Of a stretch of 64,000 bases of DNA, positions 59,396 to 64,000 are shown piece by piece; within the stretch, counting starts at the first letter, position 1, and every line of letters begins with the position of its first letter. This stretch comes from an uncultured delta proteobacterium. Its GTDB lineage: Bacteria; Desulfobacterota; Binatia; Bin18. The notes under the pieces were generated by a model. It did no database searches, was not told the origin of the DNA, and was given only the letters and a program-made list of their open reading frames with translations. The stretch is from positions 64,001 to 128,000 of the forward strand of contig CAVTCR010000056.1 in assembly GCA_963733195.1 (NCBI GenBank), given 5' to 3'. Made by a program: the position numbers and the translations under genes.

Positions 59396-59465
59396 GTACT
59401 ACCTTTTACTGTACGAAAAATTAAGGAAAAATGGACACCCACTCTGCCCTCCTGCCCTGTTCTCT

Positions 59466-60870
59466 GTAGTCCCTGAAAAAGTCAGGTTGCAGGTACTGGT
59501 AGCGGATGTGCGACAAAATGGCGCCAGAGTTTCTTGAGATTCCAGGCAGAGCCGCTGAGCAGGGCATTAATGCGATCGCCGACTTTCCCTAACAGATAGT
59601 TCCGGTCCATCCCGTGGTCGTGCTTGGTGTGCCCAATGACGGGCTCAATCGCCGAGCGTCGTTTGAGCAGCTTGCTCAACTGTGGGGGGAGATTCCGGCG
59701 GCCTGCGACATAGACTGCGACTGCCTTGGGATGATAGCGCTGGACCGCGAAAGCCTTTATCGACAAAGGCTGCTTCGGGCTGCGTTCCCGTCAAACGTTT
59801 GACTTGAGTGAGCGCCGCTTTTAAGGTGCACCATCATAAGGATTGTCGTGCACGGCATCGATCCCGACAATCGAGCTCTGCCGCGAGGTAGTGACGATGG
59901 GCACTTTGCACCCAAACTCGTAGGGCTTGGGCACTTTGCCTTTGGCAATGCATTCCACTTCCGGGGCATGAACACTATAGACCTTGCCGTGATCTCGGCG
60001 TTGTTGTGTCAAGATCCGCCGCGCGACGCTCACGACCTGTTGCTGCTTTATCGAGAGCTTCAATTTCCCTCGCTCCACATTGCGCAGCACGCGCCCCAAA
60101 TACGTGCGTAGTTTGCGGGTTTCTCGCCGCGCACGCTTGAGTTGCCGCGCTGCCCCATACCGACCTTGAGTCACCAACGCGCGCTTCCCTAGCCGTACGT
60201 AGCTCTGCCGTAACTGGAAGTTACAACTCTGCGCGACCCGCACCAGCGCTTGCCGGGCCTTGTGATACAAGCGCGCATCCGTGGAAACGCGATCGCTTCT
60301 CTTGCACCGTCGTATCCACATTCACACGCTTCACTTCTGTGCGGTGAGCACCGCTTCCCGTTGCGCGCCGCCAACGATTCTTTGAGTAACTTCTCGCTCC
60401 CTTCTACGCCTACCGTTGCCGCCACTTCACTAAACTCGTCGGATCACACGGAACTCGTGGGTAAAATACTCCTCCCCACAGAAATACTGCCAATACGGAT
60501 TCTCCACCCAACTCGCCACGACTACCTCATCACTCACATTATAGAGGTACTTCAAATAGTGTAGCCCCACGAGCAGCCGGGTGGCTAACGCGGGCCGCCC
60601 CAGTTCGGCATAAAACTGACCGAATTGCCGCTCAAATTGTCGCCCAGTTCACCACGCCGGCTAAGCGACACAGCGGATGGCGACGAGTTGAGGAAGTTCT
60701 TCAATAAGACGTCTCCCGGACGGGGCGCTCGATTTTTCGCTTTTCGCCACTTCATGAAATCACCAGCTTTTGTGCCTTTCTGCTCATTTTCTGGCGATTC
60801 TAGCGCCGTCTGCTTGCTGCTGTAGCCCTCGTCTGCACTGCGCTCCCTCCACTTTTTCAGGCTCGACTAC
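59466..60870 (-). mobile_element. IS5-family element (frameshifted transposase)
   Basis: Ends GTAGTC..CCTGAAAAAG; KVYSVHAPEVECIAKGK, RRSAIEPVIGH. Confidence 0.88.
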
Positions 60871-61989
60871 CTAATTTTTTGGTGTTGGAGTGAGGCGCCT
60901 TTGCCTGTCACGCCAACGCGCTGGCTGCCGTTGCCCGCAAGAGCAGGAAGGAAGTGAAGAAAAATAGACAAACTGTGAAGCGAGACATGGCGACAGCGAC
61001 GGGAGCGGCATTGCACGACAAAGCACGCTTGGCTGGCAACGATGGTTGATTGCTAGATACCCTCAAGGCCCCTCCTGGCTCTCCCTCGAAAATAGCGGCT
61101 TCTCTCGGCTGTGCTGCAAGGCAATGGAGAGGCTCTCTGACGACACAACCCATTTTCATTATTCGTTGTGAACCGAGGTTCATGAGCCACTGTCGCAATT
61201 TTCAACTGTAAGCGAGCAAGATTATCACTTTTGTGTATCTATACAGCCAGGGCATAGAACTGCTCCGCCGGCGTTTGTGACTCATTCTCCACAGCGAGCA
61301 ACTGCCCCTTACGAATGACATGCATAACTTCTTTGCCGGCGATCGTACAGCGGGCGGACCAAAAGGACTTGAAGCCGAGCATCGGATGTGTGATCCGTTT
61401 CACCGCTCAATGATCCTGCTCCACGAGGTTATTGAGATACTTGGAGTGGCGGATAATGATGGCGGTCTTATGGGTCCTGTTGTAGCGTGTAATCGCTGCC
61501 GTATTCGCCCCACTCTGATCGATAGTGATTTTCTCTGGGAGTCCTTGATTGGGAATGGCTTTACGTAAGAAGGCTTCAGCGGCGTCGAGATCGCGCTGTG
61601 GCGTGAGCAGAAAATCAATGGTGCGGCCCTCTTTGTCGACGGCACGATAGAGATAGGCCCATTGCCCCTTGAATTTTTACGTAGGTTCCATCAAGCCGCC
61701 AGTTGCGTCCTACCCAGCGTTGTCTGCACCCGAGCTGCTTCTCCACCTCCGGCGCATATTTGATGACCCACTGGTCGAGGGTGGAATGATCCCCCGCAAC
61801 GCTACGCTCGCCCCTTATCTCCTCGAGCTGCCGATAGGAGATGGGATACGCGACATACCACCGCACGGCCCACAAGATAACCTCCCGCTCGAAGTGCCGT
61901 CCTTTAAAGTTCATCATGCCGCCGCTCCTCTATCTCAGAGATCAGGGGAGCAGCATAGCGGAATACCCATCACGGGCAACGTTGCGACA

Positions 61990-63399
61990 TATATGGACCG
62001 TACCCCCTTTGCAAGGTGATTCTTGAAGATGACAAGATAAGGATTCAGTTGCGGACATATATGCGGCTTTCGTCGGAAAGTACGGAGACTTTCCAGCCCT
62101 GAAGGATTCCGCGCGTGCTCGCCTCAACAAAACCCAGACCTCGAAAGGGCCGTGTCGCAACGCAGGCTCTGAGCACGCTGGTCTGACCTGTAATGCCATC
62201 ACTCGTTTCTCACCTTCGCAACCGTCGGTAAGCGGAACGCACAGATGTCACAGAAATGGTTAGTCCTCTCGCGCCAAGAGACCGGGCCTCTCCTACGCCG
62301 CTTTGCGGTACTCGGCCTCACTGGTCAACAATGCCCAGGCAATGCGCGCATTCTTGTTGGCAATCGCCACCGTCGCAATATTTTTGCCCCGGCGCTGTTC
62401 CAGACTCATGATCCACCGACTGCGGGCATCGGTCTTACGGCGGGCGCGGTGGACTGTCGCCCGCGCCCCGTGAATTAATAATGTTCGGAGGTAGCGGTCC
62501 CCCCGCTTGCTGATTCCTAACAGACGCTCCTTCCCTCCACTGGAGCATTGCCGGGGGACTAACCCCAACCACGCCGCCATATGCCGCCCATTGGCAAACT
62601 CCGTGGCGGTGCCGACCGCGGCGACCAGCGCGGTGGCGATCACCGGCCCGATCCCTTCCCCTGCGCCAGCTTCTGGCACTGCGGCACTCTCAGCAAAGAC
62701 ACGTTGCACCAGGCGGTCTGCACGCAGTAACTCGTGCGTCAAGCGCGACGAGCTGCTTCATACAACTCGCGCATCACTTCCCGAGCCAAGGGGGTCAGGG
62801 CGTTACCCTCATCTTCCACAATCACCGGGAGCTGCTTCCGCAGCCTGGTGATCCCTTGGGCGAATGACGATTCCCCGCTCCGCCAGCAGGCCCCGCACTT
62901 GATTGACCAGGGCGGTACGCTCTTTAATGAGGAGGCTGCGCATCCGGTGGATCGCTTGAATATCTTGGCTCTCCACGGTCTTGAGTGGCACGAAGCGCAT
63001 GTGCGGCCGCGAGACCGCCTCACAGCTTGCCTCGGCATCACGACTATCGTTCTTATTGCCTTTGACGTACGGCTTGACGAACTGAGGGCTAATCAACTTC
63101 ACCGTGTGCCCCAGCTGCTGCAACTCCCGCGCCCAATCTTGTGCACTCCCTCACGCTTCCATCCCAATGACACAGGGAGGTAGCTGCGCGACCGTTGCCA
63201 GGAGCTTGCTCCGCGTCACGCGTTTCTGTAGGGCGACTTTGCCGTGCTGCAGTTACCCCATGCAGTTGGAAGATGCTTTTGGCCAAATCAATCCTGAGTG
63301 TCGTGACTTTCATAGTGAACCCTCCCTCTCTCGTATAATGGTGGATATATTCTGATCCATCATGAGACCCTTGTGTGAGGGGGGCGGTCCATTCCATTA
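61990..63399 (-). mobile_element. IS110 family, IS1111-type element (transposase 63313-62293, frameshifted)
   Basis: IDLAK..FQ.HG, KND..DAEA, GLVPRQ.SSGGK, A.ANKNAR; subterminal IRs ATGGACCG set 7 and 3 nt inside the ends. Confidence 0.9.
62030..62290 (-). ncRNA. Candidate bridge/seek RNA of the IS1111-type element
   Basis: Stem 62113-62124/62164-62178 enclosing an internal loop with CGUUGCGACA and GGUUUUG that match the insertion target. Confidence 0.7.
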
Positions 63400-63499
63400 A
63401 AGCCTCGGAAACTCCTCCCGCCCCTTCGTCGGCTCAAGATTGCTGAGGAAGTGCCGATACACGGGAAGGAACAGGAATAGGTAAGAAGGAGGAAACCCG

Positions 63500-63883
63500 A
63501 TGGAAGCTGACAACGACCCCAACCTCAAGCAGGCGATGGCGGAGATCTCCGCCATTTGCCAGCACTATGGAGTCGGCGCAGCCGTCGCACTGGTCTCACC
63601 GATGCACGCAGAGTGGGCGTACCGCATGCCGCCGTGGGGGCGGGTCTCCTTTACCGACGGCGGGATTCGCATCCGCGCCGCGCGCACCGAGTTCCCCTCA
63701 CGTGAAGCTCATCGCCAGGCCGTGGAGCTGACAGCGCATCTCATCCTCCAACTGCGCGACATGGGCTACCAGTTCTACCGCGAGATGGCCGCGCTCGCCG
63801 ACCTGCTAGCCGAACAGGTCAAGATCGAGCACACGCCCTACGGCGGCGAGGACCAGAGCAGGCTGCGGCCTAAGGGCCACTGA
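63500..63883 (+). CDS. Hypothetical protein (mobile-region)
   Basis: 127-aa ORF with AGGAGG RBS, higher GC. Confidence 0.7.
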   Translation: MEADNDPNLKQAMAEISAICQHYGVGAAVALVSPMHAEWAYRMPPWGRVSFTDGGIRIRAARTEFPSREAHRQAVELTAHLILQLRDMGYQFYREMAALADLLAEQVKIEHTPYGGEDQSRLRPKGH

Positions 63884-64000
63884 GCATGAGCGGAACGTTA
63901 GTGCACAGACCCCAAACACCCTAAAAAAGGAATTTTGTGAGCAAAAGAAGGAACGACTTCGACAAAAATTCCTCTTTACTTGCTCGTCTAGGAAGGAGCG

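Follow-up and report, generated by a model that had tools for sequence, protein, structure and literature searches.

In 2003, Partridge and Hall are said to have described IS4321 and IS5075, members of the IS1111 family located in the terminal repeats of Tn21-family transposons. RNA guidance in IS110 and IS1111 elements was published in 2024 (PMC11187229; PMC11208160). The former gives as hallmarks of the IS1111 family a DEDD transposase, the motif GL-P----SG, subterminal repeats of ~ 11–13 bp, extensions of 7 bp on the left and 3 bp on the right, and a downstream non-coding region (PMC11187229). In the IS1111 seekRNA, as described there, the complement of the target's top strand is placed 5′ of an overlapping match to the bottom strand, and the order is the same in the element reported here (PMC11187229).

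The window that we analysed, a stretch of 64,000 nucleotides, contains a dead copy of an IS1111-family element. In our reading, to which we assign a probability of roughly 0.88, this element entered the left terminal repeat of an IS6-family copy by RNA-guided recombination, between positions 5 and 6 of the repeat (GGCTT^TGTCGCAAC; the caret marks the point of insertion). Like IS4321/IS5075, it belongs to the IS1111 family, has subterminal repeats and occupies, in a single orientation, terminal inverted repeats that belong to another mobile element. The target of IS4321/IS5075, however, is the 38-bp repeat of the Tn21 family (Tn3-type), whereas that of the window element is the ~ 14-bp IS6 repeat, cut 5 bp from its tip, and the hosts of window-type elements are one bacterial family and soil metagenomes.

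With ISEc11, ISKpn4/ISPst6 and ISPa11, the window element shares the GL-P----SG motif, the downstream non-coding region, the 7- and 3-nt extensions, the predicted junction promoter and the order of the guides, and its intact relatives share the transposase length of ~ 338 aa (PMC11187229). Those elements target a short linear site, integron attC sites and REP sequences, whereas the window element targets IS6 ends; moreover, their seekRNAs were characterised, whereas that of the window clade is predicted from sequence (PMC11187229). The bridge RNA of IS621 is likewise a single RNA that reads both strands of target and donor round a shared core, with guides that covary with the flanks (PMC11208160). 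The IS621 RNA lies upstream, in the left end, and has two simple internal loops and a CT dinucleotide core (PMC11208160). The predicted window RNA, in contrast, lies downstream, its donor-reading parts would form a multi-helix arrangement, and donor and target share one base (117 of 121 family elements). We class the element as one that works like an IS110-group bridge RNA of the IS621 type but is not a member of that group. The preliminary description knew of no report of this target, and we found no description of IS6 ends as an IS1111 target in the literature searched in full text, nor among the targets tabulated in PMC13604230 (Table 1); ISfinder, TnPedia or the 2024 supplements may hold one. 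The target class alone appears new, the mechanism and the kind of element being already known.

The element and the IS6 copy that it splits

The element occupies positions 61990–63399 of the minus strand (1410 bp), its ends set by the subterminal repeats and the uninterrupted target. The 7-nt left terminal extension TAATGGA (63393–63399) is followed by the left subterminal inverted repeat ATGGACCGCCCCCC (63379–63392), which matches the reverse complement of the right repeat at 12 of 14 positions. The right subterminal repeat, GGGGGTACGGTCCAT, and the 3-nt right extension ATA lie at 61990–62007 on the same strand. The ends read TAATGGA + ATGGACCGCCCCCC ... GGGGTACGGTCCAT + ATA, with the IS1111 extensions of 7 nt on the left and 3 nt on the right; these lengths are fixed because the uninterrupted target is known from an intact IS6 copy (L111). 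The left extension and the right flank begin with the same base, T, which constitutes a 1-nt shared “core”.

Between the ends lies a DEDD transposase pseudogene (62293–63313, minus strand; start at 63313, stop codon at 62293–62295) with at least three switches of reading frame and in-frame stops, the frames having been assigned by tblastn. Its fragments matched Pfam PF01548 (DEDD_Tnp_IS110, E 3.8e-9) and PF02371 (Transposase_20, E 3.6e-23). The intact 338-aa transposase of a relative, P0001, matched PF01548 with E 1.3e-18 and was 74% identical to the broken protein, which is read in three frames and has three TGA and two TAA codons inside. The IS1111 motif GL-P----S(t)G is present as GLVPRQCSSG in a 149-aa fragment. 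The transposases of intact relatives have 335–338 aa, within the IS1111 range of 330–350 aa, the window gene itself being broken, and the window transposase is ~ 50–60% identical to the proteobacterial relatives found. Past the stop codon extend 303–306 nt of non-coding DNA (61990–62292, minus strand), a region that in family elements mostly measures 270–365 nt. The window element is thus a canonical member of the IS1111 family, and a dead copy. A soil-metagenome contig, otherwise identical over 209 nt, has one base fewer at 62861, the first frame-switch point, so this defect is either private to the window copy or an assembly error. That the copy has truly decayed is suggested by its remaining defects and by the host IS6, which is just as broken. 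Other transposase fragments are spread over several frames of the minus strand at 59400–60600, where Pfam returned DUF772 (E 6e-9) and DDE_Tnp_1_6 (E 1.5e-6); decayed insertion sequences are clustered where the window ends.

Excision of 61990–63399 joins ...CGTTGCGACA (61980–61989) to AAGCC (63400–63404), giving GGCTTTGTCGCAAC on the minus strand. The sole intact IS6-family copy of the same genome (L111, G000:C73) has exactly these 14 nt as its left terminal repeat, which bears out the earlier proposal that excision restores an IS6 end. Since the two halves rejoin to the L111 repeat, we conclude that the IS1111 element was inserted after position 5 of the IS6 repeat and that it reads inward. 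The outer 5 bp of the split repeat, GGCTT on the minus strand, are found at 63400–63404. The body of the host copy (61186–61989, minus strand) comprises the right repeat region (61186–61199), a broken transposase, and the left repeat from position 6 onward (61976–61989). The partner end that had been placed at 61186 is indeed there, as GCCACTGTCGCAAT, although more diverged.

Minus its insert, the host copy measures 809 bp and shows 76% nucleotide identity to L111 over 756 nt. Its transposase pieces, at 61245–61938, are 77% and 64% identical to an intact IS6 transposase (tblastn) and contain TGA, TAA and TAG stops; taken on its own, the window fragment fell under the Pfam cut-off (E 0.0042). 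The L111 transposase matched DDE_Tnp_IS240 (E 3e-37), and intact IS6 relatives of 231–232 aa matched PF13610 with E 3e-37 and 1.7e-38. A length of ~ 0.8 kb, short terminal repeats and an IS240/IS26-type DDE transposase (~ 230 aa when intact, here in pieces) fit the IS6 family. A second uninterrupted IS6 end, GGATCTGTCGCAAC, was located in G051:C97 and matches GATCC flanks.

One could also imagine the opposite order of events, with an IS6 copy inserting beside an IS1111 element that was already in place. IS6-family elements have little site preference on insertion, which would suit this order, as would one locus of another genome (L213; G051:C197, ~ 1004), at which a 22-nt stub of the IS1111 left end directly adjoins an entire IS6 end, GGTTGTGTCGCAATTTT, with the remnant of an IS6 transposase after it; there, an IS6 end has been joined inside an IS1111 left end. 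In the window, however, the IS6 repeat is split 5 + 9 around the IS1111 element, and its halves rejoin to the exact repeat of the intact copy. This contradicts the opposite order, because IS6 insertion cannot yield a repeat split in such a way, and we consider that order extremely improbable. Entry of the IS1111 element into a pre-existing IS6 repeat is the reading that we retain.

RNA structure, guides and donor segment

We aligned the region from the last ~ 245 to the last ~ 40 nt of 65 IS1111-family elements from genomes of many phyla. RNAalifold returned 36 pairs, 28 of them with compensatory changes. The cells of the consensus structure were paired in 94.1% of cases, versus 76.3% after shuffling (0 of 500 shuffles reached 94.1%) and 29–42% when the partners were slid. 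Helices 4 and 5, which close the target loop, changed on both sides across the family in 11 of 11 pairs, and helix 6, the hairpin between the guides, was 96.5% paired, with a compensatory change in three of its four pairs. The RNA structure is conserved in the family. Folded as a single sequence, the non-coding region did not surpass shuffled sequences (z −0.45), and it is accordingly the alignment of the family that supports the structure. A scan of 61000–64000 against Rfam 15, with E up to 1, gave no matching model.

In the window, the predicted structured RNA, of the seekRNA or bridge-RNA type, spans 62045–62223 on the minus strand, its outer helix running from GGUUGC to GCAACU. Within it, a putative target-binding internal loop (62113–62178, minus strand) would be closed by a stem of 62171–62178 with 62113–62120 and by a 3-bp inner stem. 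Guide 1, CGUUGCGACA (62153–62162, minus strand), is complementary at 10/10 positions to the top-strand TGTCGCAACG, positions 6–15 of the IS6 repeat. Guide 2, GGUUUU (62129–62134, minus strand), pairs with the bottom strand of GGCTTT, positions 1–6. Between the two, the model places the hairpin GGCC-CUUUCGA-GGUC (62137–62151, minus strand), with the stem GGCC/GGUC and the loop CUUUCGA. To judge from the sequence, guide 1 is 5′ of guide 2, and both would overlap in the target at repeat position 6.

The preliminary description had already singled out the enclosing stem, the hairpin and the 10/10 guide, and each of these was recovered, the position of guide 1 having been validated family-wide. It gave the second guide as GGUUUUG; GGUUUU does pair with AAAGCC, through five Watson–Crick pairs and one G:U, whereas the trailing G is outside the match. 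GGUUUU is a perfect match for the GGTTT-tipped ends in G051 (L209, L214).

A putative donor-recognition segment, CCGCAUAUAUG, was located at 62056–62066 (minus strand); its AUA repeats the right extension, and the U after it is the base with which the left end begins. The corresponding motif, CCGNAT+3+1, is present in 118 of 121 family elements. In 112 of these 118, the triplet is the element's own 3-nt right extension, and the following base is the first base of its left end, also in 112 of 118. The segment that had been noticed as matching the circle junction thus tracks the element's own tip across the family. Moreover, the left end and the right flank start with an identical base in 117/121 elements; therefore, one base is common to donor and target. 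We also observed that the RNA helix UGAUGG/CCAUCA (columns 62–67 and 185–190 of alignment A1; window 62194–62202 and 62097–62106) mimics both strands of the left tip, TAATGG/CCATTA, and changes along with that tip in a few elements (ATGA-type tips: L101, L110, L031). The segment reads CCAUCA in most relatives and CCUUCA in the window copy. On this pattern, the left donor end may be read through the helix.

The right end carries an outward-facing −35 hexamer, TTGCAA (62009–62014, minus strand), and the abutted ends give TTGCAA-17-TATAAT, as had been recognised from the window alone. The like design, TTGNNN and TANNNT separated by a spacer of 16–18 nt across the junction, recurs in 97 of 121 family elements.

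RNA production, its binding, circle formation and an effect on IS6 mobility are steps that we infer by analogy. As in ISEc11, ISKpn4, ISPa11 and IS621, the element would excise as a circle, and the abutted ends would form a sigma-70-type promoter. Transcription would pass through the transposase gene and then through the downstream non-coding region, which would give rise to a structured RNA able to bind the DEDD transposase. Of the two guides in the internal loop, the 5′ one, CGUUGCGACA, would recognise the top strand of the IS6 repeat by pairing, and the 3′ one, GGUUUU, its bottom strand; they would overlap at a single base, which is also the first base of the element. A second segment, AUAUAU, would read the element's own right tip. 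Insertion would be orientation-specific, the element always reading into the IS6 copy. Since the repeat that the IS6 transposase needs is split, the element would live on, and probably disable, IS6 copies.

It counts against this mechanism that the element shows no sign of movement in its own genome, where the sole full copy has a broken transposase and a broken host IS6; two left-end fragments accompany it. The G:U pair that guide 2 requires and the CCUUCA of the window copy likewise weigh against it. None of the sequencing runs listed as carrying the element was an RNA run; all were soil or mine metagenomes, with shares of at most 0.16, and contigs from four of them were short pieces with no joint spanning the element.

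Covariation of guides and targets

The agreement of guides with targets was scored out of 15, with a free offset inside the loop, in 61 elements with full flanks. The mean score was 12.87 for cognate pairs and 7.36 (sd 1.35) for non-cognate ones, and the cognate flank was the best-scoring target for 54 of the 61 elements. The window scored 14/15. A score of at least 13/15 was reached by 41 of 61 cognate pairs, compared to 8 of 3660 non-cognate pairs. For guide 2 in a fixed register, at least 5/6 positions agreed in 51/64 cognate versus 98/4030 non-cognate pairs. Guide 1 in a fixed alignment register was weak (at least 8 in 15 of 64 cognate pairs) because of a one-base register drift, and this scoring was replaced by the free offset.

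Close relatives carry GCGACA, GCAACA or GCGACG in guide 1 and GGUUUU, GGUUGU, GGCUUU or GGUUCC in guide 2, and both guides track the flanks. In the window, guide 1 CGUUGCGACA corresponds to the flank CGTTGCGACA, and guide 2 GGUUUU to GGCTT+T. In L004, GGUUGCGACA corresponds to AGTTGCGACA, and GGUUGU to GGTTG+T; in L015, ..GCGCAACA corresponds to ..GTGCAACA, and GGCUUU to GACTT+T. L005 combines guide 1 ..UUGCGACG and flank ..TTGCGACG with guide 2 GGUUCC (left flank not recovered); its core T is replaced by a C, a change that both guides mirror. In L015, guide 1 has changed from GCGACA to GCAACA and fits the consensus of the uninterrupted ends of its target 9/9, better than the element's own mutated flank. 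The covariation expected of true guides is therefore present both among close relatives and in the family.

These data also bear on the idea that the non-coding region matches the flanks as a captured piece of an IS6 end (a recombination scar) or by chance, the insertion site being accidental. A single copy in the genome and the decay of both elements would be in line with it. The matches, however, coincide exactly with the two places in the loop whose sequence follows the flanks in 54/61 unrelated family members, the guides and flanks co-vary among close relatives, several genomes have an element at the same site between positions 5 and 6, and non-cognate pairs hardly ever score 13/15, as given above. 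By chance, a given 10-mer would occur ~ 3e-4 times in a 303-nt strand. We assign a negligible probability to a scar or coincidence and hold to RNA-guided entry.

Occupied sites and the breadth of the target

DNA matching the element was found in 12 of 55 genomes of the same bacterial family, and G051 contains full relatives at 76–77% identity. L004, 77% identical, is arranged likewise, and the IS6 transposase downstream of it is intact (232 aa; DDE_Tnp_IS240, E 1.7e-38). L005 (G030) is in the right repeat of an IS6 copy, likewise reading inward. L015, the only close relative that encodes an intact transposase (P0001), occupies GACTT^TGTTGCACAATTCC, the end of a different IS with the terminal repeat GGCTTTGTTGCGCAATTCC; uninterrupted ends of that IS, GGCTTTGTTGCGCAATTCC and GACTTTGTTGCGCAATTCC, were found at three G051 contig ends, where the contigs stop ~ 50 nt inside. 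The right-end flanks in this close clade all lie in IS ends and read [T/C]GT[C/T]GCA (4 of 4); three run on into IS6 sequence (window, L004, L005), the fourth being L015.

We also ran a target-blind search, in which the 14-nt left tip was looked up in 55 genomes and the flanks were read. The 26 rows gave 20 distinct junctions after L189, the second L207 match and L215, which have no left-end-like interior, and L210 and L216, which are of another IS1111 subtype, had been left out, and L186 and L187 had been merged as one orthologous locus. In 17 of the 20, what follows the left end is a tip of exactly five nucleotides, the last two being CC, which corresponds to the GGNNN of an IS6 end; in the other three, the last two are TC. 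The sequence past the 5-nt tip is unique in every copy. One and the same site has thus been occupied repeatedly. Of the two outcomes that the preliminary description had named as refuting, unrelated insertion sites in other copies and a lack of covariation between guides and targets, neither was observed.

At several loci (L205, L207, L211, L212, L003, L016, L013, L186/L187, L002, L022), only the first 22–350 nt of an IS1111-type left end remain, beside a GGNNN tip. The lost part is always the right end together with the IS6 body, and the breakpoints vary; adjacent deletion mediated by IS6 is one idea of how such loci arose.

Among 80 metagenome loci, the ends were set for 54. The closest metagenome relative with flanks, L225, has 85% protein identity; its non-coding region is interrupted just past the target-binding loop by an insertion encoding a zinc-finger-like N-terminus (from ~ 3736 of the locus onward). 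More distant elements, L239 (GGCTC^TGTTGCAAAA) and L237 (GGTTC^TGTCGCGTTG), with 56–57% protein identity, likewise split IS6 ends after position 5, and each adjoins an IS6 transposase (tblastn E 8e-21 and 9e-31). A point against our reading is L062, whose target is IS6-like but which has no IS6 gene within 2 kb. A plasmid search with the L239 transposase returned relatives of at most 74% identity, and the three that were inspected had no annotated IS6 gene alongside in the PLSDB gene tables, which are incomplete.

The same cut between positions 5 and 6 recurs in ends of another type. L071, from Glaciimonas (GGCTT^TGTTGCACAAATC), abuts an IS5-family transposase (DDE_Tnp_1_5, E 3e-44), and L305, on a Massilia plasmid (GGCTT^TGTTGCGTAAATCAGG), is in an end that resembles that of L071, with no transposase shown alongside. 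We take both of these ends to be IS903-like. Three further IS1111-type elements (L236, L238, L278) are in ends that are presumably IS903-like as well, cut after position 8 (GGCTTTGT^TGAATAAATAAGATTTCG) and not after position 5. Other IS1111 targets also recur, namely ...GGGCGTTAGC, GTAAG^CG(T/C)CC and GAGGC^TGTGTGAAAA, across L006, L007, L009 and L028 (family f1), L041, L048, L086, L231, L243 and L281, and L084, L067, L077, L246 and L251. We considered the GTAAG^CG targets as IS66 ends and rejected this assignment, as the genes adjoining L041 and L048 are not of the IS66 type.

The targets of L015, L071 and L305 suggest that what is recognised may be a terminal motif common to several ends, and not IS6 in particular. 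Insertion would then be RNA-guided all the same, and the target would be the short motif GGNNN^TGTYGCA, common to the ends of several IS families (IS6 and IS903-like ends of the IS5 family), which would make the element a generalist of IS tips. The interior of the L015 target IS is unlike the IS6 copies, L071 abuts an IS5-family transposase, and L305 occupies an end of the same kind; moreover, L071 falls in one clade with the IS6-targeting L239 and L237 (support 99). On the other hand, each guide 1 reads 9–10 nt of one particular end, that of the window matching the IS6 type TGTCGCAAC at 10/10 positions, with a total score of 14/15 versus 10/15 for the L015 type, and three of the four right flanks in the close clade run into IS6 sequence. 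We regard such broad specificity as rather unlikely, and continue to read the window element as one guided to IS6 ends. The IS-on-IS parasite of the preliminary description, with its readable guide, is thereby supported; “IS6 ends” is a somewhat narrow name for the target, given that at least one further IS type has GGNNN^TGTYGCA at its ends.

In the transposase tree (FastTree, 120 sequences, midpoint root), the window element groups with the L004 fragment, L015, L225, L218 and L138 (support 99). A second clade, L062/L237/L239/L071 (support 99), is across the deepest split from it. It is tempting to propose that IS1111 guides were retargeted more than once, in these two far-apart clades, to the conserved tips of IS6-family and IS903-like ends, which are split 5 bp from the tip. 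We hold this tentatively, at somewhat less than even odds; with a quick FastTree and a midpoint root, the tree offers a mere hint of independent retargeting.

The locus reveals no new mechanism. It extends the known IS1111 habit of living in the ends of Tn21-family transposons to IS6-family insertion sequences, the family of IS26 and IS6100. The close relatives form a small natural series in which changes of guide and target can be read side by side, useful for following how the specificity of seekRNAs and bridge RNAs drifts. That such elements may inactivate the IS copies which they occupy is a testable idea. Repeated retargeting, if true, would mean that insertion sequences are in conflict at an unrecognised, RNA-programmed level, at which natural guides are directed to IS6/IS26-type ends, and that the spread of IS6 elements is possibly slowed.
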